A stretch of DNA of 51,877 nucleotides from Candidatus Taylorbacteria bacterium RIFCSPLOWO2_12_FULL_43_20 (GCA_001821295.1 MHSK01000024.1:1-51877), one strand, 5' to 3'; positions 19,437 to 48,680 are shown, counted from the stretch's first letter. Numbers and translations: made by a program. The notes: generated by a model from the letters alone, not told the origin.

Positions 19437-19547
19437 AAAAATACTAGGCAACATAAGCATTTTTTGTGCCAAACCCTCCCTTTGGATGAAACGGAGCAGT
19501 TTCTTTGCTCCACGTGGCAATTTGTTGTAGGATATCTTTACTTTCCA

Positions 19548-28147: not shown

Positions 28148-28963
28148 ATGTTTCTTTCTGAGTCTATAAAGAGAAAATTAAGAAGAAGCCGCTTAGCCAG
28201 AGCGTTCTATCAAACTTGCCTTAAAAAAATTGTAACATTTCCACTGCGCTTTACTAAACTTAGAGTCCTACAGCTTAGAAATTTTCCACTTAAGGACCTA
28301 TTCAATCCCGATAAGACCTCTCTGTTGGTTACTGTCGCTCCTTACACGCAGGCAGGGTATCCGCGAATGACGAATATATATGATTTATCAAAGGACGTAG
28401 AGCAAAGACAATTAGCCGGAGCTTTTGTGGAATGCGGGACTTGGAAGGGCGGATGCGCGGCGGTTATGGGGGCGATTGCGAAGCGTTATGGAAGCAGAAG
28501 AAAAACGTACTATCTTGATTCTTTTGAAGGCATGCCGCCCGCAACAAAAGAAGACGGTCCGGGATCAGCAAGACTCGCTGGAGACAAACTTAAAGCATCA
28601 ATGGAGGATGTGAAGGAGCTTGTTTTCGGAAAGCTTCATCTTTCTCCCGATAAAAATATTTTGGTTAAGGGATGGTTTGAAGATACATTGCCGAAAGTAA
28701 AAAAAGAAATAGGGCAGATAGCCATACTTCGCTTGGACGCTGATTGGTACTCCTCAACAATGACTATTCTTAACGAACTCTATGACCAAGTTGTGTCCGG
28801 AGGATTCGTGATTTTTGACGACTATGGCACATGGCCGGGGTGTAGGCAGGCAGTCCATGAGTTTATAGAAAAAAGAAAGTTAAAAGTTAAATTCCAATAT
28901 ATAGGCACGAACGACCCGACCGCTTTCGGCAAACTTCCGCCTATGTATTTTGTGAAGCCATAG
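28148..28963 (+). CDS. TylF/MycF-type sugar O-methyltransferase
   Basis: GAFVECGTWKGG, DSFEGMP, KGWFEDTLP, ILRLDADWYSST, FDDYG. Confidence 0.92.
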   Translation: MFLSESIKRKLRRSRLARAFYQTCLKKIVTFPLRFTKLRVLQLRNFPLKDLFNPDKTSLLVTVAPYTQAGYPRMTNIYDLSKDVEQRQLAGAFVECGTWKGGCAAVMGAIAKRYGSRRKTYYLDSFEGMPPATKEDGPGSARLAGDKLKASMEDVKELVFGKLHLSPDKNILVKGWFEDTLPKVKKEIGQIAILRLDADWYSSTMTILNELYDQVVSGGFVIFDDYGTWPGCRQAVHEFIEKRKLKVKFQYIGTNDPTAFGKLPPMYFVKP

Positions 28964-29022: not shown

Positions 29023-30498
29023 ATGCTTTTCAACTCTTTCCATTTTCTTATCTTTTTCCCAACGGTAGTCGCTTTATACTTTTTATTTCCCGCAAAATGG
29101 AGGAATGCGCTTCTTCTGGCGGCCAGCGCTTATTTCTACATGGCGCTTATTCCGAAATACATTTTGGTTCTTGTTTATCTGGTTATTATTGATTATATTG
29201 CGGGAATACTTCTTGAACGGTCGTCTGGCCGAAGAAAAAAAGTTTTTTTATACGCGAGTATTGTCTCCAACATCGGAGTTTTGTTCATTTTCAAATATTT
29301 TAATTTTTTTATTGATAATATCGCGACCGTCGCCGATATGCTTAATTTAAATTACAGCGCTCCGGTTCTTTATTTTATTTTACCGGTAGGTCTTTCTTTC
29401 CATACTTTTCAAAGTTTGAGTTATGTCATAGAGGTATATCGCGGCAACCAGAGGGCCGAGAGGAACTTTATCACCTATGCCGTATATGTAATGTTTTTTC
29501 CTCAACTTGTAGCCGGTCCGATAGAGCGCCCGGGACATCTTCTTCCCCAGTTCAAAGTATTTCATCGGTTTGATTGGGAACGGATTAAAAGCGGTTTGAG
29601 TCTCATGCTCTGGGGTTTTTTCAAAAAAATGGTCATAGCCGATAACGCGGCGCGCGTGGTCAACACCGTTTACGCCGATCCTCACTCATTTGGCGGTGCG
29701 CATTTTATCATAGCGACCGTGCTGTTTTCATTCCAGATATATTGTGATTTTTCCGGTTATTCCGACATAGCCATCGGAGGCGCCAGAGTTATAGGTTTTG
29801 ATCTGACAACGAATTTCAACAGACCTTACTTGTCAAGATCAATATCGGAATTTTGGCGCAGGTGGCACATGACTTTAATGTCATGGTTCAGAGATTACGT
29901 CTATATCCCGCTCGGAGGAAGTCGCGTGGGGTCTGCGCGGGCTCTATTCAACATATTAATTGTTTTTTTAATCAGCGGGCTTTGGCACGGAGCGGCTTGG
30001 ACGTTTGTCGTCTGGGGACTATTGAACGCCGCCTATGTAATTTTGGGGAAATTTACGCTGAACATTCGCCGGAGAGCGATGGCTCTTTCCGGTTTGGCCC
30101 GCGGATCAAAGACAAGCGATTTTTTAAGCATCTTCGCAACCTTTTCGCTCGTCACATTCTCTTGGATTTTTTTCAGGGCGGAAAGTATTGACGACGCTCT
30201 TTACATGGTTTCAAATCTTCTAAGCGGGATGGGAGAATTTCTCTCGGGCGTCTTTGCGGTTGAAACATTACGGCGGACCGCGAGCCCTCTCGGGGTCAGC
30301 GCGCCGTTCGTGGTTATGCTGACTTTATCTATCTGCGCCTTGATTTATGCTGAATATAAGTCTGGTTCCTCTGGCGTCTCGGAAATGATTGACGCCAAAA
30401 GCCGAAAAATCAGATATTCATTATATTACGCCTTAATACTCGCCTTAATGTTTTTCGCTTTTCAGGGAGATAGTCCGTTTATATATTTTCAATTTTGA
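29023..30498 (+). CDS. MBOAT O-acyltransferase (AlgI/PatA/DltB-like)
   Basis: LPVGLSFHTFQSLSY, FFPQLVAGPIER, DFSGYSDIAIG, FWRRWH, GLWHGA, terminal FIYFQF. Confidence 0.95.
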   Translation: MLFNSFHFLIFFPTVVALYFLFPAKWRNALLLAASAYFYMALIPKYILVLVYLVIIDYIAGILLERSSGRRKKVFLYASIVSNIGVLFIFKYFNFFIDNIATVADMLNLNYSAPVLYFILPVGLSFHTFQSLSYVIEVYRGNQRAERNFITYAVYVMFFPQLVAGPIERPGHLLPQFKVFHRFDWERIKSGLSLMLWGFFKKMVIADNAARVVNTVYADPHSFGGAHFIIATVLFSFQIYCDFSGYSDIAIGGARVIGFDLTTNFNRPYLSRSISEFWRRWHMTLMSWFRDYVYIPLGGSRVGSARALFNILIVFLISGLWHGAAWTFVVWGLLNAAYVILGKFTLNIRRRAMALSGLARGSKTSDFLSIFATFSLVTFSWIFFRAESIDDALYMVSNLLSGMGEFLSGVFAVETLRRTASPLGVSAPFVVMLTLSICALIYAEYKSGSSGVSEMIDAKSRKIRYSLYYALILALMFFAFQGDSPFIYFQF

Positions 30499-30500
30499 AC

Positions 30501-31637
30501 ATGAAAACCGCGACTAAAGAAATCTTTTTGTTTACTCTTCCGATTGCCATAGTTGTCTTGTTTCCTTTAATGGTTTTTTTTATATCAGGCGAGTTTTATT
30601 CATTGGAGAAAATTCAAAGCAGGATGCTTGAAGGAGAGCCGATTTTATATGGCAAAGCGTATATGGTAGATTCCGATCGTGATTTCAAGATACCTATGAT
30701 GCAGAGAATTACACCCGACATTATGACCCTGGGCAATTCACGGGTGCTGACATTCAGGCGGGAGTTTTTTGAAGAGGGAACGCGATTTTTTAATGGCGGC
30801 AGTCTTGTCGGCAATTTTAGTGATTTAGAGAAGGTTATAAATTTAGTGCCGAAAGATAGCCGGCCTAAAGTGGTTATTATAGGTCTTGATCTGCATTTAT
30901 TTCATCCGATCAATGACGACCTGTATAAAGGCGACGTAAAAATGGCAAATATTAATACAAAGCGGTCACTTCTAATAAGCGGACTTAGAAACAGCTATAG
31001 AGATTTGCTTTTGGGAAAATACAGTGTTTTTAAGATACTGAACGCCGGAGGGGATGGCGCTGTATCACCGGTCGGTTTGAAAGCCGTAATAAACAATGAC
31101 GGGTTTAGAAGTGACGGCAGTTATTATTACGGATATATCATGTCGGATCCCCAAAATCCCGAAAATGAGGATCATGAATTTAAAGACACATTTGCCAGGA
31201 TGAAAAAAGGGGATCAGCTTTTTTATCAAGGAAAAGAGATTTCCGAGCTTACGATTTCGGCGCTTGTTGATTTTCTTGATTTCGCGATGGAAAACAAGAT
31301 TCACGTTATTGGTTTTCATCCACCTTACGCGCCGACCATATACGACGCGCTCGCGGCTCGGAAAAATGATTTTGAGTACATGTTTAGAGTAAATGAAATT
31401 CTGGCACCGATTTTCCAGGGGTATGGTTTCTCTCTTTTTGATTACTCGGATATTCGATTTCTTGGCTCGTCTGACGAAGAGTTCGTAGACGGGTTCCATG
31501 GAGGAGAGAAAGCGTATGCACGAATTATCATGGATATGGCTGAAAAAGACAACTTGCTCAACCAGTACGTTGACATTGATGCTTTACGAAAAAAATTGGA
31601 CGTTTCAAAGACCGCATTAGAAATTTTTCCAAACTGA
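30501..31637 (+). CDS. membrane-anchored SGNH-like partner of the MBOAT (AlgJ/DltD-like)
   Basis: N-terminal TM, LGNSR (Ser block), DGFH (DxxH); 2 nt downstream of the MBOAT gene. Confidence 0.65.
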   Translation: MKTATKEIFLFTLPIAIVVLFPLMVFFISGEFYSLEKIQSRMLEGEPILYGKAYMVDSDRDFKIPMMQRITPDIMTLGNSRVLTFRREFFEEGTRFFNGGSLVGNFSDLEKVINLVPKDSRPKVVIIGLDLHLFHPINDDLYKGDVKMANINTKRSLLISGLRNSYRDLLLGKYSVFKILNAGGDGAVSPVGLKAVINNDGFRSDGSYYYGYIMSDPQNPENEDHEFKDTFARMKKGDQLFYQGKEISELTISALVDFLDFAMENKIHVIGFHPPYAPTIYDALAARKNDFEYMFRVNEILAPIFQGYGFSLFDYSDIRFLGSSDEEFVDGFHGGEKAYARIIMDMAEKDNLLNQYVDIDALRKKLDVSKTALEIFPN

Positions 31638-31663: not shown

Positions 31664-31691
31664 TTGACGGCTTCTATAATGTAATTATACT
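31664..31691 (+). promoter_or_regulatory. candidate sigma70 promoter for the kinase/cyclase module
   Basis: TTGACG (31664-31669)-N16-TATACT (31686-31691) in a 115-nt gap. Confidence 0.5.
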
Positions 31692-31752: not shown

Positions 31753-32742
31753 ATGGCTAATGAGAAGATTGCAGAATTTCTAAACAAATTGGGAATTCAA
31801 AAAATAAAGCAAATCAAGGCCTTCCCCAAAGGGAATATCAATGAATCTTATTTTGTGGATTCCGAACTTGGATCTTATGTTTTTCGAATTTATTTTCACA
31901 AGCAAAAAAAAGAGATTGAAGACGACCTTAAACTCTTACGCCGCTTGAAAGGAATACCTGTCCCTCGCCCCGAGGTTTTTAAAGGCGGAGAAATACATAA
32001 ATTAGGAGACAAGTGGGTTGTGCTGTTCAGTTTTTTACCCGGCGCGCATGCTAAAGATTTTGACATTAACTTGCTAAGCGAAGTCGGTAAATTTTTAGGA
32101 GTTTTTCATAAATTATCTAAGAAATCAAAATGGAGAGGCCCTAAAACAAAATTTTATGGCTTGACGAGATCCAAAATACATGAGATTAAACTGGTAATTG
32201 AAAAAACCGACATTCCTCATAAAAAATTTTTTCCAGAGATACTGGGAGAGCTTGAGATGAATTTGATAAGAAGGCGTCTGCCCGAGGGGCCCATACATAC
32301 AGATGTTAAACCCGAAAATGTTCTCTTTAAAGACGGTAAGTTATCCGGCGTTTTGGATTTTGACAACGCCTATGTCGGTCCGCTCATTTTAGATGTCTCC
32401 AAGTCAATGGCTTGGTTCGGATCTAAAAATAGAATGTTTGATATGAATAAGGCAATCCACATATATCACGGCTATCAGCATACTCGGCGCTTAACAGCGA
32501 TTGAAAAAGAGGAATTTTACAAAATGCTCCGTTTCGCATTTGTAAGCCATGTCTTTATGGATTATTATATGTATGCCACGGGTAAAATCTCCAGAAAATA
32601 TTTTGATTTTATAGTTAAAAATTTCTACGCGAGCTATAAACATTTCAAACAAACGCCTAAGGAGAGTTTTATGAAATTGCTGACCAGTATTTTACCGCCC
32701 ACTACCCACCGGGTTCCATTGAAACGGCGGAAAGGAAACTAG
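31753..32742 (+). CDS. APH/homoserine-kinase-type-II family phosphotransferase
   Basis: GNINESY, YVFRIY, IHTDVKPENVLF (HxDxxxxN), LDFD. Confidence 0.85.
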   Translation: MANEKIAEFLNKLGIQKIKQIKAFPKGNINESYFVDSELGSYVFRIYFHKQKKEIEDDLKLLRRLKGIPVPRPEVFKGGEIHKLGDKWVVLFSFLPGAHAKDFDINLLSEVGKFLGVFHKLSKKSKWRGPKTKFYGLTRSKIHEIKLVIEKTDIPHKKFFPEILGELEMNLIRRRLPEGPIHTDVKPENVLFKDGKLSGVLDFDNAYVGPLILDVSKSMAWFGSKNRMFDMNKAIHIYHGYQHTRRLTAIEKEEFYKMLRFAFVSHVFMDYYMYATGKISRKYFDFIVKNFYASYKHFKQTPKESFMKLLTSILPPTTHRVPLKRRKGN

Positions 32743-32779
32743 ATACTTAATCCTTTCTGTTTTTCGCATATTATCATTT

Positions 32780-33511
32780 ATGGTTTCTCTATCAATAAAA
32801 GAACTTCGTCATAAATTGCAAAGAACGGCTCCCGAAGGCGCGTCAGAAACCTATGTGGGAAAGAGCGTGCGTTTTTTTTCCATATATCTTACGAAGGCGG
32901 TTTCCGCCACACGCGCAACTCCCAATCAGATCACCTTTTTGGGCGTGCTCATATTTCTTTCGGGTGTATCGGTCTTTTTATTCCGATCCTACGCATTAAA
33001 TTTTCTTGGGGTTGCCCTGATTTACGTTTCTATTATTTTTGATGCCGCAGACGGAGAGGTTGCCCGTCTAAAAGGCAATCAAAGCGGCATAGGCGGCAGT
33101 TATGTTGAACCGCTGAGTCATGACTTCCAGTACGCGCTCATGTTTATTCCGCTCACTTTGTCAGTTTATATTTCCACGAGCGAGGTCGTGATTGTTTATG
33201 TCGGTTTCGCGGCAACCGTCTTCAAGCTATTGCATAGATTTCTGACTATAAGATTTGAGCACGTATTTATGATGAAAAACGGCACAAGCAGGGATGCAAT
33301 TGGCAGCGATGAAAAATATATTTCACTGCCGCACAAAATTTATAAATTTTTTAACAGAAATATATTCAGCTCCGTAGGGCTTCCCATACCGCTTCTGGTT
33401 TTTGTCATACTAGACAGGGTTGATTTGTTCATATGGTTTTTCGCTATTGGTTTTTTTGTCATATTCGCCGCTAATTTTGCTTATCAAATGAAATATATTA
33501 TTAAGCATTAG
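32780..33511 (+). CDS. CDP-alcohol phosphotransferase family membrane protein
   Basis: TPNQIT, DAADGEVAR..G...EPLSHD (variant of DxxDGxxAR..GxxxDxxxD); multiple TMs. Confidence 0.88.
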   Translation: MVSLSIKELRHKLQRTAPEGASETYVGKSVRFFSIYLTKAVSATRATPNQITFLGVLIFLSGVSVFLFRSYALNFLGVALIYVSIIFDAADGEVARLKGNQSGIGGSYVEPLSHDFQYALMFIPLTLSVYISTSEVVIVYVGFAATVFKLLHRFLTIRFEHVFMMKNGTSRDAIGSDEKYISLPHKIYKFFNRNIFSSVGLPIPLLVFVILDRVDLFIWFFAIGFFVIFAANFAYQMKYIIKH

Positions 33512-33550
33512 AAAGAGAATGTGCATATTTTAAATGGATAACTTAAATTG

Positions 33551-35395
33551 ATGAAAAAAGGAATTATCGTCATAGAACCAAAAACTCCGCGTCTCAATTA
33601 TTTAAGGACAGAACTGCCTTTCATATTGATCTATGGGAAGCCGCTAATCCATCATCACATAGAGAATCTTATTGACGCCGAGGTGTTTGACATTGTAATT
33701 GTAATTCCCAATACGCTGGAAAAAGATCTGCGCGGCCAACTCGGTGAATTTTTTCAGGAAAGAGCCAAAATAAAAGTAAGCATCTACTTGGGCGAGAATT
33801 ATTTTCTGGCTTTAAAAAATATTCTAGCGAACACGGAAGCCGATGATCACCATATTATTTTTACGGGGCTTATATCGGAAAAAAACCCGCACAAGTTTTT
33901 TCTGAAGAAAAAAAAGCTGGAATTACTTATTGACAAAAATTTATTGCATAACAAATTTTCAGGAGCGCGAAACAAAGTCAAGACCGGCCTATTCGGCATA
34001 AAAGAAATAGGACCCGACATCACCGGTTATAACGCTGAATTGCAAAGGGCGTATTACATGAACAAAGAAGGCGCTCAAGAAATAGCGCGGATAATGGATG
34101 GGAATCCCGATTCAACGCTTGAGAAAGCCATAATGGAATGGGGTTTGTCCAATAAGATTGGTATTTTGAATCACGGCAAGTATTTGTGGTATGAAATCAA
34201 CTCCCCGGAAACAGCTATCCGAGCCGAAATGCTTTTCAGGCGCAAGAAAGAAAACGCGCGCCCGACCGAAGTCAAAACAGACAGATTTATTTACCCAGAC
34301 ACTTCGCTTCATTTCAGGTATGAAAAATCCAGAGAGACACCCGTAATTATTGAACAAGGTATTCTTGACAGAATTGACACACTACGTCTTATGGACCGGG
34401 ATAGGACAGCATCTCACCACATTATGATCACGGATACGGTTGTGGACAGACTTGTGGGGAAAAAAGTGGAAGAAAAGTTAACAAAAGCAGGGTATTCCCT
34501 TACGAAAATCATAGCTCCGTCTGGTGAAGCCGCGAAAACAATGAATGTCTATCATGAGTTGTCAGAAAAAATCACCAGTATCGGAATAGACGAGCAGTCC
34601 GTCATATTTTCTTTGGGTGGAGGAGCTATAGCTAACCTTGCCGGTTTTCTCGCCGCCACTCTGTACAGGGGAATAGGGCTTATTCATATTCCCACATCAC
34701 TGATGTGCATGAATGATGTGGCCATAAGCTTAAAGCAAGGCATAAACAATCAAAAAGGCAAAAATCTGGTAGGCAGCTACTATCAGCCGTTGCTTGTTGT
34801 AATAGATCCTTCCGTTCCCATGAATGAAACCATCATCAGGCACGGAATGTCAGAGACGATAAAGCATGCTTTAGCAGAGGATGTCGCCTTTTTTGATTAT
34901 TTGCTATCATACAACGGTGATTTGAAGGATGTAAATTTTCTTGAAAAAATCATAAGGCACACGATTGAACTCAAAATAGGGCTTATGAATGACGATATGT
35001 TTGAAAACGCGAGGGCTATCATACTTCAATACGGGCATGAGGTGGGGCACGCTATAGAATATCTTTCACATTTTGGCTTGACTCACGGAGAAGCAATTTC
35101 AATCGGAATGAGAGTGTCGGCGGAAATTTCGCATCTTATGGGTGTCACTTCCGAGGATACTGTTTACGCACATAAAAAAATATTGGAACATTACAAACTG
35201 CCTTATATTATTCCTCAAACCATTGAAAAAAGAGCGATATTGGACGCTTTGCGATTCAATAAAAAAACAAGAGGTAATGACATTCGTTTTGCTTTACTGG
35301 AACATGTGGGTAAGATATGGAAGATAAAAGGTGAATACGGCATTCCTTGCCCCGTTGAAATTATAGAAGAGGCGATCAGAAGAAGTTATGAATAA
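33551..35395 (+). CDS. fusion: degenerate nucleotidyltransferase-like domain + sugar-phosphate cyclase (2-deoxy-scyllo-inosose synthase-like; DHQS superfamily)
   Basis: N-terminal GKPLIHHHIENL..DIVIVI and WYEINSPE; C-terminal SGEAAK, LGGGAIANLAG, RGIGLIHIPT, DVAISLKQGIN..GKNLVGSYYQP, ETIK, QYGHEVGHAIE, THGEA. Confidence 0.8.
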   Translation: MKKGIIVIEPKTPRLNYLRTELPFILIYGKPLIHHHIENLIDAEVFDIVIVIPNTLEKDLRGQLGEFFQERAKIKVSIYLGENYFLALKNILANTEADDHHIIFTGLISEKNPHKFFLKKKKLELLIDKNLLHNKFSGARNKVKTGLFGIKEIGPDITGYNAELQRAYYMNKEGAQEIARIMDGNPDSTLEKAIMEWGLSNKIGILNHGKYLWYEINSPETAIRAEMLFRRKKENARPTEVKTDRFIYPDTSLHFRYEKSRETPVIIEQGILDRIDTLRLMDRDRTASHHIMITDTVVDRLVGKKVEEKLTKAGYSLTKIIAPSGEAAKTMNVYHELSEKITSIGIDEQSVIFSLGGGAIANLAGFLAATLYRGIGLIHIPTSLMCMNDVAISLKQGINNQKGKNLVGSYYQPLLVVIDPSVPMNETIIRHGMSETIKHALAEDVAFFDYLLSYNGDLKDVNFLEKIIRHTIELKIGLMNDDMFENARAIILQYGHEVGHAIEYLSHFGLTHGEAISIGMRVSAEISHLMGVTSEDTVYAHKKILEHYKLPYIIPQTIEKRAILDALRFNKKTRGNDIRFALLEHVGKIWKIKGEYGIPCPVEIIEEAIRRSYE

Positions 35396-36143
35396 ATTTA
35401 CGGCGGTAATTTTAGCGGCGGGGATGGGGTCTCGGTTAAAACATCTCACAAAAGACCTGCCTAAGCCCCTTGTTGAAGTAGGAGGAAAATCTTTGATCTG
35501 GTACGCCATAAGTTGGGCTAAATCCTTAGGTGTGTCAAAAATCGTGGTGGTGGGAGGGTATAAATTTGAGCTTCTAAAAGAGGCGGTAAATTTAATTGAT
35601 TCATCCGTAGTGATGGTTGAAAATGAAGAATACGCTACGACGCAGAGAATGGTCAGTCTTCTTAAGGCCAGAGGAGAAGTTGAGGGCGGACTATATGTGC
35701 GCGACGCCGATTATATTTTTGACACCTCTCTTGCGAATAAATTCAAAAAATATTTTGATGGTACGGTTATTTTCGGCACGGGAAAGGACTCGGTTGGTGT
35801 CGGGCTGGACATGAAAGTCAAATTGGATGACGACGGGAACCTCCTGGACATGTCAAAAGAGCTCACGGATTATGATTATTTTTTCTGCACGCAAGTTTTT
35901 TCAGAAGAAAAAAAAGTTTCTATCCTGCTTCAAGCCGGAGAAGATCTCATAAAGGAAAAAGGGGACGGCATGGTGCATGTTGAGGACGCTCTTCTTAAAA
36001 TGGTAAAGGACGGCGAAACGGTGAGATTTATTGACGTGGGAGCTCCTAAGTGGGTTGAAATTGATACTATAGAGGAATATGAGCGAGCAAACGAGCTGGT
36101 AAGCAACAAAGGAGAAAATGTGGCTGTGGAACTATTGCAGTAA
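35388..36143 (+). CDS. phosphocholine/inositol-phosphate cytidylyltransferase-like NTP transferase (LicC/IPCT type)
   Basis: AVILAAGMGSRL..LTKDLPKPL, DADYIF, MKV, WVEIDT.EEY; overlaps the upstream gene. Confidence 0.85.
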   Translation: MNKFTAVILAAGMGSRLKHLTKDLPKPLVEVGGKSLIWYAISWAKSLGVSKIVVVGGYKFELLKEAVNLIDSSVVMVENEEYATTQRMVSLLKARGEVEGGLYVRDADYIFDTSLANKFKKYFDGTVIFGTGKDSVGVGLDMKVKLDDDGNLLDMSKELTDYDYFFCTQVFSEEKKVSILLQAGEDLIKEKGDGMVHVEDALLKMVKDGETVRFIDVGAPKWVEIDTIEEYERANELVSNKGENVAVELLQ

Positions 36144-36215: not shown

Positions 36216-39200
36216 ATGAATAGATTAATAAACCACAAGATTGGTCAAATTTTTCGCAGTTTAAAAGATGGCAGACCGGCATGGCTATGGATTATAGGCA
36301 TATTTGCCGCCATTAACTTTTTCCTGACTATTTTTCTTGGTTATCTATTCTTAAATAATTATAATATCTGGTGGGTTATCAGCGCGGTTCCTCAAGCTCC
36401 GCGGCGGACGGTGCAGGCTGTAATTGATTGGGTTAAAGAAATACCCTACATTCCGTATCAGTTCATAGATGACGGTCTTCCTCGCTACGACATTGTGCTG
36501 ACAAAAGCTGATTATGAAGAGCTTTTGGAGAATCTGCCGCGCGACATCAGTCAGTTTTTGACTGATGAAAATAAAATAAAGAAAAGAGCTGTTTTTAGAC
36601 ATGGTAAAAAAGTCTACGAAGCGAAGGTGGGTTTCCGCGGCGATGGCTCTGGACACTGGTTTTGGCCGAAAAAATCTTGGAAGGTTAAGTTGGCTGACGG
36701 GAATTACATTGACGATATGAGGGAAATTAATTTTATTTTACCCGATGAGCGTCAGTATATTGTTGAGGCTTTTAATAATTATCGCACGCGTAAATTAGGA
36801 TTACCGTATCTCAAAGACGGATGGGGTGTGCTTTATGTAAATGGTGTCAAGCAAGGGGTATATTATATCTCTGAATCATGGGGAAGCGAATTTCTAGCCA
36901 GAAACTCTCTTAATGACAACGGAACTTTGTATGGAGACAAGTATCCGCCATCGCCCAAAGATCATTATTCCATTTATGGAAAGTTTGATGATATAGCTGA
37001 TTTTTGGAAAACATACACATCACAGCCAAAAGAACGTGAGGTTGGCGACGATGAGAATTTATCAGTTTCATCAAGCAATATACCTGACGTCAGCATAACT
37101 GCGTTATCTCAATTTTTTAAAGTCGTCAACTCTGAAGACGAGTATTTCAAAAAAAATATTTGGAATGTTGTAGACAAAGAAGATTTCTATAATTGGTATA
37201 TGCAATCTAAATTGTCCGGCAGTTATCATCAATACTGGATGAACAACGCTCGTATGTATTTTGATCCGGAGATTGGGAAAATGCGCGTCATTCCCGTGGA
37301 TGTGGGTATTTACACTGATGCTATTCCTTATTTTTTTCTTGGCACAAACTCGCTTGTTGACCGGTTGATTAAAAATCCGGATTTTATTACAGAAGTTGAG
37401 AGGCGGCTTTATAAATATGTCAGTGATGAGAAAAATCTTGAAGAAGATCTTGCTTATTATGATTCCTTGTACAAAAAAGTGAGAATTGCATTTTATCAGG
37501 ATCATTTGGATGAGAACACCGGCAAATCATTTGATAAGACGGTGGCGAGCGGCAGGGACGCAATTATTGCCAATTTTCACGCAATTTCAAAACATATAGA
37601 AAGTGCGGAAGTAGAAAACATCGTGACGCTGAATGCAGGGACGAATGGCAATTTATTTGAGGGCAAGAGAATCTTGGCTGAATTGCATGTTAAGGAAAAA
37701 AGCGCGGCGCCTATTGTCTTGCGTTCTTTATCTGTTCCGGCATTTTCTTCCGAGAACTCCCCGGAGCTTTATGAAGATGTTAATCTTAATGGATTTCTTG
37801 ACTCCACAGACCGAAAAGTGGGAGTTTTCTCGTTTTCAGCCGAAAAAAAAGAATGGGTTATTGGCAGTCTTAAAGAAGTTTTTAACCCATCTTTATCTTT
37901 GTTGAATAGCGATGAAATTAATAATATCGGCAATCTAGAATTCGCCAAAAAAGTTTACGAAATATCCGCAACTGAAAAAAAATATTTTATTGCCGCTGAA
38001 AATATTGCCGGCGAGCGATTCAAAATAAAGACATTTTTTGAAAACCTTATATCAAGTAAAGAAATTCAACCATTACGCGAAGTGTACGTGGATCAGTCTA
38101 TATTCGCGGATTTTGACGCGGTTTCGTATTCGCAGGACGAGTTTTTGGCGATGAACCCCATATTTTATAAGATAGATGACAATACTCTGGGCGTTGGTCC
38201 GGGAGTTTTTGATCTCGCTAATACGGTCGTAATTCCAAAGGGCCAGATCTTATCTGTCAGTTCGGGCACTACGTTGCGCTTTTCTCCAGGCGTGTCCTTT
38301 TTCTCTTATGGAAAAATCCTGGCGCGATCGTCATCAGGTAATTCAATACGATTTGTAAAATCCGGTAAAGACCCGTGGGGAGTTTTCGCTCTTATTGAGG
38401 CGCCTGGCACGAGCGTTTTTGACGGTGTTGTGTTTGAAGATGGGGGAACCGGGCTCATAAACGGCGCATATTTTTCTGGAATGCTAGCCGCTCACCACTC
38501 GGATATAATAGTGCGAAATTCCTTTTTTAAGGGGGCGACCGGTGATGATGCGCTTAACGTCAAGCACGCGAGTTCTTCCATTGTTTCCAATCAATTCACG
38601 GCCAATCAATTTGACGCTATAGATCTGGATTGGGGTAATTTTTCGTTTGTCAAAGACAACGTGTTTGAGCAAAATGGTGATGACGCGATTGATCTCGGAG
38701 GAGCGCAAGGTGTCGTCATAATGGATAATTTTATAAAAAAATCAGGTGATAAATGCATTAGTATTGGTGAAAAATCAGTCAGACCGTTGATTATTAATAA
38801 TATTCTATCGGGCTGTAAGATCGGAGTACAGGTTAAGGACGGGTCCGATCCGATTATAGCCAACAACATAATATATGGAAATGATATTGGCATAGATGCT
38901 TATGAAAAAAAGGGTATTTATGGAGGGGGTTATGCCGAGGTTTATAATTCTATTATTTGGGGAAATAAAGTATCGTTGTCAATGGATGAGTTTTCCACTA
39001 TTAAAGTCGTATCCAGTAATGTTGAGGGGGGGTGGCGGGGCGACGGTAATATCGCGGTTCCCCCTTCTTTTAAGGATGCTGACGGCGGTAACTTTACTAT
39101 AGGAAAAGGAAGTGATAGTATCTTATTGTTATTTCAAGAGGGAGGAGAGAGGTCTGTTTTGACAGACTATTTTGGATTAAATCTTGAAAAGATTCCTATA

Positions 39201-39218
39201 GGCCTTTTGAACCAATGA
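36216..39218 (+). CDS. membrane-anchored CotH-kinase-like domain + right-handed parallel beta-helix protein
   Basis: N-terminal TM; FRGD..HW..KKSWKVKL, LYVNG..GVYYISE, NARMYFDP..IPVD (CotH); C-terminal repeats DDALN, DAIDLD, GDDAIDLG, GDKCISIGE, GVQVKDGS. Confidence 0.8.
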   Translation: MNRLINHKIGQIFRSLKDGRPAWLWIIGIFAAINFFLTIFLGYLFLNNYNIWWVISAVPQAPRRTVQAVIDWVKEIPYIPYQFIDDGLPRYDIVLTKADYEELLENLPRDISQFLTDENKIKKRAVFRHGKKVYEAKVGFRGDGSGHWFWPKKSWKVKLADGNYIDDMREINFILPDERQYIVEAFNNYRTRKLGLPYLKDGWGVLYVNGVKQGVYYISESWGSEFLARNSLNDNGTLYGDKYPPSPKDHYSIYGKFDDIADFWKTYTSQPKEREVGDDENLSVSSSNIPDVSITALSQFFKVVNSEDEYFKKNIWNVVDKEDFYNWYMQSKLSGSYHQYWMNNARMYFDPEIGKMRVIPVDVGIYTDAIPYFFLGTNSLVDRLIKNPDFITEVERRLYKYVSDEKNLEEDLAYYDSLYKKVRIAFYQDHLDENTGKSFDKTVASGRDAIIANFHAISKHIESAEVENIVTLNAGTNGNLFEGKRILAELHVKEKSAAPIVLRSLSVPAFSSENSPELYEDVNLNGFLDSTDRKVGVFSFSAEKKEWVIGSLKEVFNPSLSLLNSDEINNIGNLEFAKKVYEISATEKKYFIAAENIAGERFKIKTFFENLISSKEIQPLREVYVDQSIFADFDAVSYSQDEFLAMNPIFYKIDDNTLGVGPGVFDLANTVVIPKGQILSVSSGTTLRFSPGVSFFSYGKILARSSSGNSIRFVKSGKDPWGVFALIEAPGTSVFDGVVFEDGGTGLINGAYFSGMLAAHHSDIIVRNSFFKGATGDDALNVKHASSSIVSNQFTANQFDAIDLDWGNFSFVKDNVFEQNGDDAIDLGGAQGVVIMDNFIKKSGDKCISIGEKSVRPLIINNILSGCKIGVQVKDGSDPIIANNIIYGNDIGIDAYEKKGIYGGGYAEVYNSIIWGNKVSLSMDEFSTIKVVSSNVEGGWRGDGNIAVPPSFKDADGGNFTIGKGSDSILLLFQEGGERSVLTDYFGLNLEKIPIGLLNQ

Positions 39219-39997
39219 ATTTACAACCAGAATTTCACTTCAGGCGTTTTGAGATCAAGTATTTAACGGATGAAGATACGGCTGAAAACATAAAAAAAGA
39301 TTTAATGCCCTATCTGAAACACGATCCTTTTGCAGATCAGGAAGCAAAAGAGTATGAAGTAAGGAGTGTTTATTATGACAGCCCGGGATATTTTTACTAT
39401 CAAGAAACTCTTGATGGCTATAATTCAAGGAAAAAAATCAGAGTAAGATGCTATCGGACTGGCGGCCAGATTAAAGACAATGCTTTTCTTGAGATCAAAC
39501 GTAAAGAAGGAGTAATTGTTGTAAAAGACCGCATACGGCTTAATCTGGAAGAATTGCGTCAATTTCAAAAAACGGATACGTTACTGGATAGCGGACGGTC
39601 TTTTTCTTCCAAAGAAGAAAATTTCATAAAAGAATATGAGTTTGAAAGGGTTATCAGGGCGCTTTCTCCTAAAATTTTGGTAACTTACACGAGGGAGCCA
39701 TACGCGGGAGTGTATGACGAAGGCCTCCGAGTGACTTTTGACAGAAATATTAAAGCGGCTCAGAATGACAATCTTTTCTATGATGGAGGCGACATGGAAA
39801 GAATTCATCCGGGTGAGGTTGTGGTGGAGATCAAGTTCAGAAGGGGCCTTCCTGTATACATGGGGGAAACTATAAAAAAATTCAGCATGATAAGAGTTCC
39901 TTTTTCCAAATATCGGAAGGGGGTGGAAGAAACACGCGCCATACCCGGGAGTTTTCCAGGCATCACGCGGGGTTTTGAAACAGTTTCGTATATTTAA
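39215..39997 (+). CDS. VTC-domain (polyphosphate polymerase, CYTH superfamily) protein
   Basis: RFEIKY, RSVYYDS, RKKIRVRCY, FLEIKRK, YTREPY, RVTFDRNI, VVEIKF, FSKY. Confidence 0.92.
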   Translation: MNLQPEFHFRRFEIKYLTDEDTAENIKKDLMPYLKHDPFADQEAKEYEVRSVYYDSPGYFYYQETLDGYNSRKKIRVRCYRTGGQIKDNAFLEIKRKEGVIVVKDRIRLNLEELRQFQKTDTLLDSGRSFSSKEENFIKEYEFERVIRALSPKILVTYTREPYAGVYDEGLRVTFDRNIKAAQNDNLFYDGGDMERIHPGEVVVEIKFRRGLPVYMGETIKKFSMIRVPFSKYRKGVEETRAIPGSFPGITRGFETVSYI

Positions 39998-40018
39998 TTA
40001 TAATTAGAGATAATCACC

Positions 40019-40711
40019 ATGAATGATTCCATGAATGAATTGTTAAATCTGGGTACGAGCCAACTGCAAAACCCGACGCTTATTATAACCGGCATACTGA
40101 CCTCTTTTGTTATCGCGCTCATTATCGTATATATTTATCGCAAGACGCACAGAGGGCTTTCTTATTCTCAGTCATTTGTCGTAACTCTTATTTTTGTCAC
40201 TATGGTGGCGGCCGTTGCGATGATGGTCATAGGTAATAATGTAGCAAGAGCCTTCGGTCTCTTGGGAGCTTTTTCTATCATTCGCTTCAGAACTGTTGTG
40301 AAAGAACCCAAGGACATAAGTTATATATTTTTTGCTCTTATAGAGGGAATGGCTGTTGGAACCGGTAGTTATTTGATTGCGATCATTTCAACCATACTTT
40401 TTTCAATAATTTTAATTACACTGCATAGGTTTAATTTCGGATCTTATCAACCGAAGAGATACCTGCTCTCTTTTCTAGTGGGTTCGGAAGTCAGACATGA
40501 GGAAAATATTTCTGCGATATTCAACAAATATTTAAAAAACAGTTTATTGCTAAACGTAAATTCTAAAGATGACGGAAAAATGAGAGAAATGATTTACGAT
40601 ATTGATTTTTTTGAAAAAGGCAAAAGCGGTCCGTTTGTTTCTGAGCTGGCTTCAGTCCAAGGGGTTGAAAAGGCCCGCATAATCACATCCACAACGGACA
40701 TTGAGTATTAG
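40019..40711 (+). CDS. DUF4956 family membrane protein
   Basis: YSQSFVVTL, IGNNVARAFGLLGAFSIIRFRT..K.PKDI.YIF, GMAVG; C-terminal soluble ACT-like part. Confidence 0.9.
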   Translation: MNDSMNELLNLGTSQLQNPTLIITGILTSFVIALIIVYIYRKTHRGLSYSQSFVVTLIFVTMVAAVAMMVIGNNVARAFGLLGAFSIIRFRTVVKEPKDISYIFFALIEGMAVGTGSYLIAIISTILFSIILITLHRFNFGSYQPKRYLLSFLVGSEVRHEENISAIFNKYLKNSLLLNVNSKDDGKMREMIYDIDFFEKGKSGPFVSELASVQGVEKARIITSTTDIEY

Positions 40712-40752
40712 ACTGAAAAAATGCGTCAGCATATAGCTTTTTGACTAAACGA

Positions 40753-42141
40753 ATGAGAAAAATATTGCTAACAATTTCTCGCGGCTGGATTGCGCGTAAT
40801 CTATTGCATAATGAATTTTACAAAATCTTAAGAGAAAATTGCGAGCTTATCATCATAACGACGGCGGCCGACAGCGATCGTTTTATAGGTGAATTTTCTC
40901 ATCCGAACGTCAGATTTATCGCGATGGATGAGAAGGGCCACAATTCTCTAGATGCCCTGATCTTTTTTTTTCACAAAAATCTTATATATAACTCCACGGT
41001 TGATCAAAAGAATCGATGGGGAATCATAGGCGATCCTAAAAGTAGAAAGCCCATCTTTTTTTTCTATCTTATAAAAAAAATAATTTTTATCCCTCTAAGT
41101 AAAATGAAATTTTTGCGCGAGCTATTTCGTCTCGTGGATTACTTTTTTTTACAAAAAAATGAAGTGAACAAATATTTGAAAGTTTTGGATAGGGAAAAAC
41201 CTGATTTGGTTCTGTCAACAAACGTTTACAGTGACAGCGAAGCCGCGCTTATAAAGGCGGCTAGAAAAAGAAAAATATTTACGCTCGGAATTCCAAAAAG
41301 CTGGGATAATTCCAATAAAAACGGACTACGGGCCAAAACTGACGTAATGTTCGTGTGGAGCGAGTTTATGGCGGATGAAGTCATAAAATACCAGAATTAT
41401 AAGGATAAAAAAGTAAAAATTTTGGGAATTCCGCAGTTTGATGATTACACAGATAAGAATTTGATAATGAATAGAAAGGAATTTTGCGAAATATACGAAC
41501 TTGATCCCGGCAGGCGGATTATTTTTTTTGGATCGGAGGGAAAACTGCTGCCAACTGACGCGGAAATTGCCGATATTATTTATGAAGATATTTTGACGAA
41601 CAAGTTTAATGAACCGTCGCAACTATTGGTACGCCCCCACTTTGGCTATAAAGATGACGATCTTAAATTTAAGAGTCTCTTCGGCAGGGATCGTGTCGTG
41701 GTTGACCGCTTGAACAACCCCTCAGATTGTTTTCGCGACTCATGGGATTATTCTTCAGAGTTTACCAAGCGTTTTGTAAATTGCCTTTATCACAGTGATG
41801 TCATAGTCAGCACTTATTCCACGCTCACGCTTGACGGAGCCGCTTTTGACAAACCGCTTATTAACATAGCTTTTGATGGAAGGAAATTCGTGCCGTATGA
41901 TCGATCTGTCGCCAGGTGGGAAATGGCAACTTATTTTAAAAAAGTGTTGAATACCGGCGCGGTGTGGAATGTAAATAATGTTTCCGAACTTAGGAACGCA
42001 ATCAATTCGTATTTTGACAACCCTTCAAAATTATCAAAAGAAAGAGAATTGCTAAGGGCAAGGTTTTGTTTTAAGATTGATGGACAAAGCGGAAAACGCT
42101 TCGCTAATGAGGTTCTGAATTTGCTTAGAGCCAGTTCATAA
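40753..42141 (+). CDS. GT-B protein, CDP-glycerol glycerophosphotransferase (TagF)-like / candidate nonulosonate transferase
   Basis: RN motif near the N-terminus, PKSWDN, GIPQFD, VRPHF, STLTLD..FDKPLIN, DGQSGKR. Confidence 0.6.
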   Translation: MRKILLTISRGWIARNLLHNEFYKILRENCELIIITTAADSDRFIGEFSHPNVRFIAMDEKGHNSLDALIFFFHKNLIYNSTVDQKNRWGIIGDPKSRKPIFFFYLIKKIIFIPLSKMKFLRELFRLVDYFFLQKNEVNKYLKVLDREKPDLVLSTNVYSDSEAALIKAARKRKIFTLGIPKSWDNSNKNGLRAKTDVMFVWSEFMADEVIKYQNYKDKKVKILGIPQFDDYTDKNLIMNRKEFCEIYELDPGRRIIFFGSEGKLLPTDAEIADIIYEDILTNKFNEPSQLLVRPHFGYKDDDLKFKSLFGRDRVVVDRLNNPSDCFRDSWDYSSEFTKRFVNCLYHSDVIVSTYSTLTLDGAAFDKPLINIAFDGRKFVPYDRSVARWEMATYFKKVLNTGAVWNVNNVSELRNAINSYFDNPSKLSKERELLRARFCFKIDGQSGKRFANEVLNLLRASS

Positions 42142-47306: not shown

Positions 47307-48680
47307 ATGAAAATCATATTTATTATAATAACGCGAGGATTTATAATCCGGAATGTTTTACGGTCCGGCGGACTTGTTCAATTTAGAAATAAAGGTTATA
47401 AAATCGTCATAATACTTGATTGTAAAGAAGTTCCAGAATATTTAAGGGAAGAGCTTGCGTCAGAGAATGTAACGGTCGTGGCGGAAAAGGGCCGCGGTTT
47501 AGGACGAATCCACCGCCTTTTTCACAATATTCAGACTTTCCTCATATTTACAGACAGTACCGTGAGATATTTAAAATATGGCAATAATCGTTTAATTGCC
47601 AGGCCAAGAGTTTTCACTTATTTGCATATCGCTTTTGTCTGGCTAATCAGCCGCATGCCCTTGCTTAAATCGTTGTCGCGTTTCGTTGAGGTCCATTTAT
47701 TTCCTCAGTATCATGTTTCGATCGCCCGATTGTTTGATGAACATAAGCCGGATGTGGTTTTTTCAACCTCCGTTATTTCCGGTTTAGATATATTGTTTAT
47801 GAAAGAAGCCAAGCGAAGGGGAATAACAACCGTGTCTATGCCCAAAGGGTGGGATAATGTAACTAGGAATTATTATAGATTTGTTCCAGATTATTTTATT
47901 GTTCAGACAAAAGTTCTTCGTGATGAATTGGTTCGTCTCCAAAAATTTCCCGCCAAACGTGTTTACATAACGGGCTTTCCGCAATTTGACTGGTATCGGA
48001 AATCGGACGTGATAATTTCTCGCGAGGAATTTTGCAAAAAATACGGCCTCAATCCCAGCCTTTCTATCATCCTTTTCGGCTCGGAAGGAGGCTGGGCTGA
48101 TCACGATTTTGATGTCGCGGAAAATATCAGAGTCATGATAGAAAAAAATGAATTGGTCAAAGAGTGCCAACTATTGGTAAGACCGCATTTTTCTAACTTC
48201 AGAAATGAGCTATTCAAGAAATTGTTAGGCAGAGAACGCGTCAAGGTGGACACGTCATATAATATCTCAGATGCATTTGTGGATAATTGGGATCCTTTGG
48301 ACGATGAGACGAAAAATCTTGCCAATAGTCTTTATCACGCCGATCTTCTTGTCACCACGGCGTCAACGTTGAATCTTGATATGGCGTGTTTTAATCATCC
48401 TATAATCAATCTAGCATTTGGCGGACGATTCAGAGGCGCAAGAGATATTACACCCTGGCTCTATAAGTCCAACCATATGCAATGGGTTATAAACACGGGA
48501 GGAATCAGATTGGTATCAAACAACAATGAACTTAAGAACATGATCAATGTTTATCTGAACAATCCGCATTTGGATAATGAGGGTAGGGTAAGACTCGCGA
48601 ATGAATTATGTTATAAAGTTGACGGTAAGTCTTCAGAGAGAATGGTGGATGCGATTGATGATATTATGAAAAAGAGTTGA
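47307..48680 (+). CDS. second TagF-like GT-B protein (paralog of 40753-42141)
   Basis: IRNVLR, PKGWDN, GFPQFD, GSEG, VRPHF, STLNLD, VDGKSSER. Confidence 0.6.
   Translation: MKIIFIIITRGFIIRNVLRSGGLVQFRNKGYKIVIILDCKEVPEYLREELASENVTVVAEKGRGLGRIHRLFHNIQTFLIFTDSTVRYLKYGNNRLIARPRVFTYLHIAFVWLISRMPLLKSLSRFVEVHLFPQYHVSIARLFDEHKPDVVFSTSVISGLDILFMKEAKRRGITTVSMPKGWDNVTRNYYRFVPDYFIVQTKVLRDELVRLQKFPAKRVYITGFPQFDWYRKSDVIISREEFCKKYGLNPSLSIILFGSEGGWADHDFDVAENIRVMIEKNELVKECQLLVRPHFSNFRNELFKKLLGRERVKVDTSYNISDAFVDNWDPLDDETKNLANSLYHADLLVTTASTLNLDMACFNHPIINLAFGGRFRGARDITPWLYKSNHMQWVINTGGIRLVSNNNELKNMINVYLNNPHLDNEGRVRLANELCYKVDGKSSERMVDAIDDIMKKS

Follow-up and report, generated by a model that had tools for sequence, protein, structure and literature searches.

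A group of four genes in a 51,877-nucleotide stretch of DNA (the window) from Candidatus Taylorbacteria bacterium RIFCSPLOWO2_12_FULL_43_20 (GCA_001821295.1, MHSK01000024.1:1-51877) appears, on balance, to form the core of a conserved cytidine diphosphate (CDP)-cyclitol module, through which a cyclitol-phosphate would be installed in the cell envelope by a phosphodiester bond. The group occupies positions 31753-36143, where four plus-strand open reading frames (ORFs) lie in the same orientation. It consists of a kinase gene, a CDP-alcohol phosphotransferase (CDP-AP) gene, a gene in which a transferase-like domain is fused to a sugar-phosphate cyclase and a gene for a standalone nucleotidyltransferase:

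31753-32742, plus strand: kinase gene (P0001), 329 amino acids (aa), APH fold
32780-33511, plus strand: CDP-alcohol phosphotransferase gene (P0002), 243 aa
33548-35395, plus strand: fusion gene, transferase-like::cyclase (P0003), 615 aa
33548-34300, plus strand: nucleotidyltransferase-like N-terminal domain of P0003, residues about 1-250, degenerate here
34340-35323, plus strand: sugar-phosphate-cyclase domain of P0003, DHQS-like and DOIS-like, residues about 265-592
35388-36143, plus strand: nucleotidyltransferase gene (P0004), 251 aa

P0001 and P0002 are separated by 37 bp and P0002 and P0003 by 36 bp, P0003 and P0004 overlap by 8 bp, and the whole group is flanked by gaps of 115 bp upstream and 72 bp downstream. 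An earlier interpretation of this DNA, made from the sequence alone (the sequence-only reading), had described four tightly spaced, co-oriented genes, and the ORF listing reproduced its coordinates exactly. Its family calls also agreed with Pfam and NCBIfam for the kinase, the CDP-AP, the DHQS-like cyclase and the nucleotidyltransferase. The DHQS-like or DOIS-like domain of the cyclase gene was correctly recognized, but the fusion with an N-terminal domain had been missed.

Judged from gene content, the grouping of the four genes is far beyond chance, as the same set was found in 20 of the 32 fused loci of other assemblies. A metagenome scan with an alignment of close fusions returned 67 loci. 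The four window proteins were then compared with 45 metagenome loci (L113-L157) plus L002-L007; loci L158-L179, with weak or partial matches (generic DHQS where long enough, otherwise fragments), stayed outside the count. In the 32 fused metagenome loci, kinase homologues adjoin the fusion gene in 27 cases, kinase and standalone transferase are both present beside it in 26, and kinase, P0002-type CDP-AP (at least 100 bits) and standalone transferase in 20. In eight of the 12 incomplete loci the contig breaks off within about 2.6 kb of the fusion; L125 and L126 carry a different, weakly matching CDP-AP, and L136 is of the Myxococcota type described below. Since L132/L134 and L137/L150 are near-duplicates, the 20 complete loci represent about 19 independent ones. 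The sequence-only reading had named the failure of the four genes to co-occur in other genomes as the result that would speak against it; the recurrence of the set, in several gene orders, disposes of that objection. Besides the order seen in the window (kinase-CDP-AP-fusion-transferase), we found CDP-AP-fusion-SDR-kinase-transferase, kinase-transferase-fusion-SDR and CDP-AP ... fusion-kinase-transferase. This variation in order points to selection on the gene set and not to inherited synteny.

A scan of genome contigs returned mostly housekeeping DHQS, the useful loci being L002-L007, with Myxococcota fusions in L002-L005 and L007. A Myxococcota-type variant (L002, L003, L004, L005 and L136) has the arrangement GT21 glycosyltransferase - DUF6938 - transferase::cyclase fusion - SDR - PfkB kinase, with neither APH kinase nor CDP-AP. 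The presence of a PfkB kinase in this variant indicates that the cyclase comes with a kinase regardless of the family from which the kinase is drawn. The Myxococcota variant may make an NDP-cyclitol for a (pseudo)glycolipid.

Natural gene fusions were found as well. The transferase-like::cyclase fusion occurs in all members. A cyclase::SDR fusion was found in L124, P0041 and P0046, a kinase::CDP-AP fusion in L115 and P0132 (APH kinase), and a CDP-AP::nucleotidyltransferase fusion in P0133 and P0136, the C-terminal domain of P0133 matching P0004 with 180 bits. In P0128 a TagF-like protein is fused to a CDP-AP; its TagF part scored 224 bits against the product of the window gene at 40741-42141 and 170 bits against that of the gene at 47307-48680. 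Fusions of a CDP-AP to a HAD phosphatase are represented by P0146, P0148, P0151 and P0152. In two further loci the standalone nucleotidyltransferase is fused to a methyltransferase, of the TylF type at L118:9502-11016 and of the Methyltransf_23 type at L119:6590-8293, which suggests that the cyclitol or its CDP-ester may be O-methylated in these relatives.

The residue pattern places the cyclase domain of P0003 as a phosphate-eliminating cyclase of a new DOIS-related branch. P0003 exceeds a DHQS in length by about 250 aa. It has many homologues of 610-630 aa, with names that include Falkowbacteria and Parcubacteria and that, like the genome size, suggest an organism of the candidate phyla radiation; precomputed annotations show NTP_transferase domains preceding the DHQS domains in most of them. 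With both Pfam domains present (DHQ_synthase, 101 bits; DHQS_C, 102 bits) and with metal ligands and phosphate-binding positions retained, P0003 belongs to the sugar phosphate cyclase superfamily. Among solved structures, the cyclase domain scored 165 bits against Mtb DHQS, 148 against the DOIS BtrC (2d2x), 91 against ValA and 72 against DDGS, a ranking that makes a C7-cyclitol synthase (EEVS/DDGS) less likely. The score against the aroB model TIGR01357 was 263.4 bits (265.1 in the genome search), and the equivalog cut-off of 305 was not reached. Glycerol-1-phosphate dehydrogenase was rejected as an assignment at 23.8 bits vs 263 for aroB.

Sixteen active-site columns were read in the best DHQS-like ORF from each of 175 loci. 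Residues E436, H497 and H513, which we take to be the metal ligands, and R374, K396, N406, H501 and K572, presumably the Arg, Lys, Asn, His and Lys that hold the phosphate, were invariant in alignment A1 and in the column reading, and the metal-ligand and phosphate-contacting columns were identical across the generic, Gln-type and Glu-type groups. The groups differ at four other columns: D363, T/V397, R490 and N494 are constant in housekeeping-type DHQS, whereas the window clade has N363, Q397, A/G/E490 and Q494. In the HMMER alignment to 2d2x, Gln494 of P0003 stands opposite Glu243 of BtrC and Ala490 opposite Gly239, and Mtb DHQS has Asn and Arg, respectively, at these columns. P0003 lacks the R/N pair constant in 113 generic DHQS, which we take to be the carboxylate-binding Arg of DHQS and the Asn located three residues ahead of the first His ligand (R264 and N268 in A. 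nidulans numbering); it lacks also the DOIS Glu at BtrC position 243, presumably a catalytic residue. The fingerprint common to P0003 and BtrC is Asn363, Gln397 and a residue other than Arg at 490, and three sequences with N, Q, A/G and E494 display the BtrC-like pattern.

The FastTree tree was built from 165 sequences with a length of 270 aa or more. In it the Gln-type sequences group in a 49-tip clade (support 0.995), where 48 tips have Gln at column 494 and one has Asn. The Glu-type clade comprises three tips (support 0.986), whose sequences are not themselves characterised enzymes. The two clades are sisters and are set apart from the 113 generic DHQS with support of 0.974. The assignment of P0003 as AroB (3-dehydroquinate synthase) was rejected because of the score below the aroB cut-off, Ala490 and Gln494 in place of R490/N494, the separate clade and the failure to find chorismate synthase (PF01264) in the genome, the sole downstream shikimate enzyme searched for. 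The genome has no second DHQS-family gene.

P0001 matched PF01636 (APH) with 92 bits, and its sequence contains H-x-D-x4-N and DFD strings, which we take to be the catalytic motif of APH-fold kinases (H-x-D-x4-N plus D-F-D). It scored 125 and 86 bits against the type-II homoserine kinase (ThrB-alt) models of NCBIfam, whose cut-offs are 271 and 256, and is thus a member of the APH family and not a ThrB equivalog; its best match in the PDB was 2ppq (56 bits). We propose that it acts as a cyclitol kinase.

P0004, proposed here from its family matches as the cyclitol-phosphate cytidylyltransferase, matched NTP_transferase PF00483 with 47.8 bits (cut-off 21.2). Its best NCBIfam model was the IPCT half of the bifunctional IPCT/DIPPS (62 bits), its best solved relative was LicC 1jyk (57 bits), and it matched the IPCT structures 2xme and 4mnd over the full length. 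The cut-off of 580 of the bifunctional IPCT/DIPPS model (NF041135) was reached neither by P0004, with its 62 bits on the IPCT half, nor by P0002, with 27 bits on the DIPPS half. The signature loop of P0004, AAGMGSRL...PKPL, is intact, and the protein has the features of LicC-type/sugar-1-phosphate nucleotidyltransferases (PF00483) that the N-terminal domain of P0003 lacks. In the latter, no Pfam domain was detected and NCBIfam gave E = 0.002-0.004 at most; the intact N-terminal domains of relatives match the IPCT half of IPCT/DIPPS.

P0002 belongs to the CDP-AP family by Pfam score (PF01066, CDP-OH_P_transf, 31.9 bits; cut-off 22), by its multi-pass membrane character with 5-6 hydrophobic segments and by its CDP-AP fold. 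The best NCBIfam models were archaetidylinositol-phosphate synthase, PIP synthase and the DIPPS half of IPCT/DIPPS, and the PDB sequence match was AF2299. The AlphaFold model (pLDDT 84, pTM 0.82) matched AF2299 with TMq of 0.63-0.66 (probability 1.00), IPCT-DIPPS with 0.59 and PIP synthases with 0.54-0.59; for human choline phosphotransferase CHPT1 the TMq was just 0.32. The CDP-AP signature is given as D-x2-D-G-x2-A-R ... G-x3-D-x3-D in PMC9246714. Its first half is intact in P0002 (D-x2-D-G-E-x-A-R). The second half reads G-x3-E-P-x-S-H-D, with Glu for the third Asp and, at the position of the fourth, His followed by Asp. Both halves are invariant across 24 strong homologues. Run against 1.84 billion proteins, a profile built from 20 P0002 homologues gave 57 representatives at E <= 1e-30 and 2,235 at E <= 1e-10; the tight family consists of the top 34 representatives (at least 183 bits), 27 of which have E-P-x-S-H-D. 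Proteins P0159-P0274 are CDP-APs of about 240-260 aa with a D/E-x3-H-D/N variant of the canonical D-x3-D, and the CDP-APs of this kind (the 2,235 representatives at E <= 1e-10) apparently constitute a large, uncharacterised branch. One member of this branch, P0179, is fused to GINT1_N (glucosamine inositolphosphorylceramide transferase-like).

Relatives have a fifth gene, which the sequence-only reading had overlooked: a ketoreductase was found in or beside the module in all 20 complete loci, an SDR in 10, a Zn-ADH in nine and a Gfo/Idh/MocA enzyme in one. The best model for the latter was the inositol 2-dehydrogenase IolG (193 bits). Three unrelated reductase families in the same slot would be expected if the cyclase yields a ketone (an inosose) in need of reduction.

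DHQS-type cyclases discard the phosphate that myo-inositol-phosphate synthase (MIPS) retains. In the mechanism we favour, the cyclase domain of P0003 would oxidise a hexose 6-phosphate, eliminate the phosphate and close the ring to a deoxy-inosose, a step assigned from the protein family and from the conservation of catalytic and phosphate-binding residues. The dedicated ketoreductase of the relatives (SDR, Zn-ADH or IolG-like) would reduce the ketone; in the window organism this reduction would be done elsewhere or skipped. As cyclisation removes the phosphate, a kinase is needed to put one back, and P0001 would re-phosphorylate the cyclitol. P0004 would convert cyclitol-phosphate and CTP into CDP-cyclitol, from which P0002 would hand the cyclitol-phosphate on to a membrane-bound acceptor, releasing CMP. 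Possible acceptors are scavenged diacylglycerol, a lipid-linked glycan and a second cyclitol-phosphate. The TagF-like enzymes probably use the same CDP-donor, by which they would decorate or extend a teichoic-acid-like glycopolymer. The product would be a C6 cyclitol of the deoxy-inosose or deoxy-inositol type, made de novo. The core of the sequence-only reading, a route through cyclase, kinase, cytidylyltransferase and CDP-AP, gains support here from co-occurrence, fusions, the DOIS-like character of the cyclase and the dedicated ketoreductase in relatives.

The genome (1.0 Mb, rated 100% complete) provides the background for these steps. P0002 is the sole PF01066 protein found in it, and the genome search detected no CdsA (CDP-diacylglycerol synthase), no PlsC-type acyltransferase and no MIPS. 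With no CdsA found, CDP-diacylglycerol is unlikely as the donor for P0002, so that a PIP/AIP-synthase-type reaction is unlikely too, and the soluble CDP-alcohol made by P0004 would be the natural donor. Since neither PlsC nor CdsA was found, the organism apparently cannot make its own phospholipids. The failure to find CdsA, PlsC, classical PGI, MIPS and chorismate synthase is consistent with a host-dependent lifestyle with lipid scavenging.

The window as a whole is one long glycopolymer locus. The 129 ORFs that flank the modules in 20 loci (L126, L128 and 18 of the 20 complete ones) include 24 methyltransferases, 18 GT1/GT4 and eight GT2 glycosyltransferases, eight TagF-like proteins, four Wzx and three CotH. 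Three window genes outside the module are of interest in this respect:

40741-42141, plus strand: TagB/TagF-like CDP-alditol phosphotransferase, PF04464
47307-48680, plus strand: second TagB/TagF-like phosphotransferase, PF04464, with homologues near modules
28148-28963, plus strand: TylF-family O-methyltransferase, PF05711, a possible tailoring enzyme with a weak link to the module

Homologues of the 40741-42141 gene lie within 8 kb of the module in nine of the 20 complete loci and also in L117, and TagF-like homologues in general were found near modules in 10 of the 20 and in L117. The enzyme encoded at 40741-42141 is a probable consumer of the CDP-activated product. The TylF domain of L118 shares 38% identity with the product of the window gene at 28148-28963 (E = 6e-43). 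Homologues of other window neighbours also occur near modules: CotH in four loci, VTC together with DUF4956 in two, MBOAT with a 380-aa partner in two and Wzx in six.

A number of observations weigh against the assignment of a CDP-cyclitol module to the window. Substrate, product, nucleotide and acceptor were all inferred, from gene content, residue conservation, co-occurrence, fusions and fold, which are what was observed. Glucose 6-phosphate (G6P) as the substrate of the P0003 cyclase is a guess, and so is a DOI-type product, there being no characterised precedent with which to compare Gln at the BtrC-E243 position; the tree holds no verified EEVS, DDGS, EVS or EboD. Classical PGI was not found in the genome, which puts the hexose-phosphate supply in doubt. 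The module of the window has no ketoreductase, unlike 20 of 20 complete relatives. A Zn-ADH homologue was not found in the genome with the one query used, and the SDRs found there were just generic ones (29% identity), encoded on another contig. The second half of the P0002 motif differs from the canonical G-x3-D-x3-D. The proposed scheme does not account for the presence of two transferase domains in the modules of most relatives, and in the window one of the two is altered: at the nucleotidyltransferase signature of the N-terminal domain (alignment A1), relatives have ILAAGxGxRL...TPKPL and the window has VIEPKTPRL...TELPF, so that the window copy could be a reduced or decaying version. The module is moreover sporadic, since none of the 400 other genomes sampled from the phylum had the fusion. 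A TagD-like cytidylyltransferase gene lies on another contig of the genome, and the TagF-like enzymes may simply use CDP-glycerol; as the TagD-like gene could supply it, the TagF link is suggestive but not exclusive.

The phylum sample also contained 33 genomes with cyclase-domain-only matches, whose 29 loci were made up of 27 generic DHQS, one odd sequence and one Gln-type (L083). As to the N-terminal domain of P0003, the glycine-rich G-x-G-x-R loop and the conserved Lys are presumably the catalytic signature of the nucleotidyltransferase family, and the fused domain is probably inactive in this organism. P0006, the closest relative of P0003 (61% identity over the full length), has lost the same glycines; the window copy lacks the Lys as well. 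With the motifs lost in this domain and the signature of P0004 intact, the nucleotidyl transfer would fall to P0004. The sequence-only reading had speculated that a distant Gfo/Idh/MocA gene of the window could serve to reduce the inosose; this suggestion found no support, as that gene shares just 21% identity with the in-module Gfo gene. It lies at 19464-20561 and adjoins genes for a GDP-mannose 4,6-dehydratase and a DegT enzyme. The 380-aa ORF at 30495-31637 was rejected as a hidden reductase: it matches nothing in Pfam, bears no real resemblance to Zn-ADH and recurs instead with the MBOAT gene.

The missing reductase and the altered N-terminal domain raise the question of whether the window copy is a non-functional or repurposed remnant whose ancestral product is no longer made. 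Such decay is improbable in our view. The reductase of all 20 complete relatives is indeed absent and the N-terminal domain of P0003 has lost both signature elements, but the four ORFs are all intact and sit tightly packed, with overlap, conserved catalytic residues are present in the cyclase, the kinase, the CDP-AP and P0004, and P0006, with a change of the same kind in the N-terminal domain, keeps 61% full-length identity, which suggests that selection is still acting. A soluble product is another option: P0002 might join CDP-cyclitol to a second cyclitol-phosphate, after which a phosphatase would act to give a di-cyclitol phosphate, a compatible solute or small signalling molecule resembling di-myo-inositol phosphate (DIP) and no part of the envelope. 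P0004 and P0002 each match one half of bifunctional IPCT/DIPPS, IPCT-DIPPS is among the folds nearest P0002, and the four close CDP-AP::HAD-phosphatase fusions would be expected if the product bore a terminal phosphate. We nevertheless hold it to be unlikely, given that the HAD queries used found no homologue in either the window or the 51 loci, that the module lies inside glycopolymer loci and a TagF-like::CDP-AP fusion exists, and that the IPCT/DIPPS scores, 62 and 27, compare with a cut-off of 580.

It may also be asked whether a cyclitol is involved at all. The genes could serve a Kennedy/Lic-type route for choline, ethanolamine, homoserine, serinol or glycerol, with the DHQS-like protein a plain dehydrogenase or unrelated. 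The reductase of the pneumococcal Gtp pathway would belong to the DHQS/Fe-ADH superfamily. The three-gene CDP-2-glycerol pathway of pneumococci (gtp1-3) is mentioned in PMC1391919. LicC is the best solved relative of P0004 (57 bits) and homoserine kinases are the best models for P0001; all kinase and transferase matches, however, fall far below equivalog cut-offs. The phosphate-binding and catalytic positions of a phosphate-eliminating cyclase are all invariant, the cyclase co-occurs with the module and is physically fused into it, in Myxococcota the place of the APH kinase next to this cyclase and SDR is taken by a PfkB kinase not homologous to it, and one in-module reductase is IolG-like. 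Taken with these findings, a route of this type has a low probability. Still less probable is an NDP-pseudosugar route, in which the cyclitol itself would be transferred by a (pseudo)glycosyltransferase and P0002 would serve another substrate. The sequence cyclitol kinase, nucleotidyltransferase, pseudoglycosyltransferase is established for GDP-valienol in acarbose and validamycin biosynthesis (PMC9200736). The Myxococcota variant, with no CDP-AP and a GT21 glycosyltransferase upstream, would fit the scheme, as would the many glycosyltransferase genes that flank the modules. It is opposed by the P0002-type CDP-AP of 20 of the 32 loci (small-genome lineages), which is found fused to the kinase or the transferase and whose family transfers a phospho-alcohol; the N-terminal domain, a possible maker of a second NDP form, is degenerate in the window.

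Within the favoured CDP-cyclitol module, a more specific version can be offered only tentatively. Some ultra-small bacteria of the candidate phyla radiation (CPR) type, and other lineages, might build a teichoic-acid-like polymer or lipoglycan with a phosphodiester-linked carbocyclic deoxy-inositol unit, for which P0002 would make a phosphatidyl-cyclitol anchor and which the TagF-like enzymes would extend. The deoxy-inositol, as a repeating or anchoring unit, would come from the Gln-type DHQS/DOIS branch, and P0002 would re-headgroup scavenged diacylglycerol, by analogy with the phosphatidylinositol anchor of mycobacterial lipoglycans. If true, a sugar-phosphate cyclase would for the first time have a role in the cell envelope, and inositol-like lipids would have a MIPS-independent route.

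Further observations concern the surroundings of the module. Directly 3' of it, positions 36216-40711 of the window encode three proteins: one is CotH-kinase-like and has a beta-helix (1000 aa), one has a VTC domain and the third is a DUF4956 membrane protein. CotH homologues were seen near the module in L115, L116 and L132/L134, and VTC and DUF4956 homologues in L115 and L132; the three proteins may belong to the same envelope system. The closest relative locus, L117 (68% identity in the cyclase), lacks CotH, VTC and DUF4956; the stretch that separates its transferase gene from its TagF-like gene (L117:2131-5039) holds instead a weak methyltransferase-like ORF and a sulfatase-family (perhaps LtaS-like) ORF. 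On the 5' side, positions 29023-31637 hold an MBOAT acyltransferase gene overlapping the 380-aa ORF. The pair recurs near the module in L113 and L118 and resembles a DltB-like pair for O-acylation in which the partner is unrecognised.

The 115-bp gap 5' of P0001 contains a promoter candidate:

31664-31691, plus strand: sigma-70-like promoter candidate, TTGACG-16-TATACT, 10/12

The sequence-only reading had given the group its own promoter at this place. The site exists, but sites of this kind are not above the shuffle level (17 found in the region vs 13.7 +/- 3.7 in shuffles), and it is best regarded as a plausible start and a weak indicator. In the same gap, the minus strand carries at 31712-31684 a leftward TTGACA-17-TATAAT, a 12/12 match to the sigma-70 consensus, which overlaps the plus-strand candidate and lies in antisense orientation to the upstream genes.

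DHQS-family cyclases have been described in the shikimate pathway and in natural-product routes (aminoglycosides, validamycin/acarbose, mycosporines, the ebo cluster), and CDP-alcohol phosphotransferases in phospholipid and di-inositol-phosphate synthesis. In the open-access literature searched, supplements excluded, no published description of the present gene combination was found. A module that unites a cyclase and a CDP-AP would define a MIPS-free route to an inositol-like head group or polymer unit, a new functional cyclase branch (Gln-type) and a large CDP-AP branch with the D/E-x3-H-D motif. P0002, as the sole head-group-type transferase found, bears on how episymbiotic bacteria build or remodel their envelopes.

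Several known systems resemble the module in part. BtrC (2d2x) scores 148 bits against the cyclase domain and has the same Asn363, Gln397 and non-Arg 490, the window clade being sister to the Glu-type; in the window and nearly the whole clade, however, its Glu243 is replaced by Gln, the window gene carries a fused N-terminal domain, and no aminoglycoside context is present. In LicA/LicC and the Kennedy pathway for CDP-choline and CDP-ethanolamine, a kinase, a cytidylyltransferase and the transfer of a phospho-alcohol are likewise combined, and LicC is the nearest solved relative of P0004. The alcohol is taken up there and not made by a cyclase, the transferases are of the LicD or CPT type, and CHPT1 is a poor match to P0002. 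The GDP-valienol branch of acarbose and validamycin biosynthesis (PMC9200736) also leads from a sugar-phosphate cyclase through a cyclitol kinase to a nucleotidyltransferase that makes an NDP-cyclitol. It differs in its C7 cyclase (EEVS), its place in secondary metabolism, its sugar-kinase-like kinases and GlgC-like transferase, and in that a pseudoglycosyltransferase moves the cyclitol, whereas a CDP-AP would transfer it here as a phosphodiester. Wall teichoic acid synthesis by TagD/TagB/TagF shares phosphodiester-linked polyol units on a glycopolymer as well as TagF-like genes, syntenic here with the module and fused to a CDP-AP in P0128; the polyol would in our case be a carbocyclic cyclitol supplied by a cyclase of the DHQS type, and a CDP-AP would take part as well.

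The closest parallels are found in inositol metabolism. The IPCT/DIPPS pathway, which leads to di-myo-inositol phosphate in Archaeoglobus, Thermococcales and Thermotoga, relies on a cytidylyltransferase for the CDP-cyclitol and on a membrane CDP-AP for the phosphodiester; P0004 and P0002 match both halves, the folds are close, and CDP-AP::transferase fusions occur in the P0002 family. The cyclitol-phosphate comes there from MIPS with its phosphate kept, whereas a phosphate-eliminating cyclase and a kinase stand here and no MIPS was found; the scores of P0004 and P0002 are also far below the family cut-off, and P0002 has a motif variant. A putative alternative inositol-lipid cluster of Bacteroides vulgatus and Prevotella (PMC9246714) consists of MIPS, an NTP transferase, a CDP-alcohol phosphatidyltransferase and HAD. 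Itself biochemically unconfirmed, it follows the same Kennedy-like logic, with a CDP-cyclitol and a lipid acceptor, and its CDP-AP is sometimes fused to HAD, as in P0146-P0152. It uses a MIPS-derived precursor and has neither kinase nor cyclase nor reductase, and it belongs to another phylum and to a lipid context, not a glycopolymer locus. The module would thus follow the logic of IPCT/DIPPS and of the inositol-lipid cluster, with a cyclase, a reductase and a kinase in place of their precursor supply.

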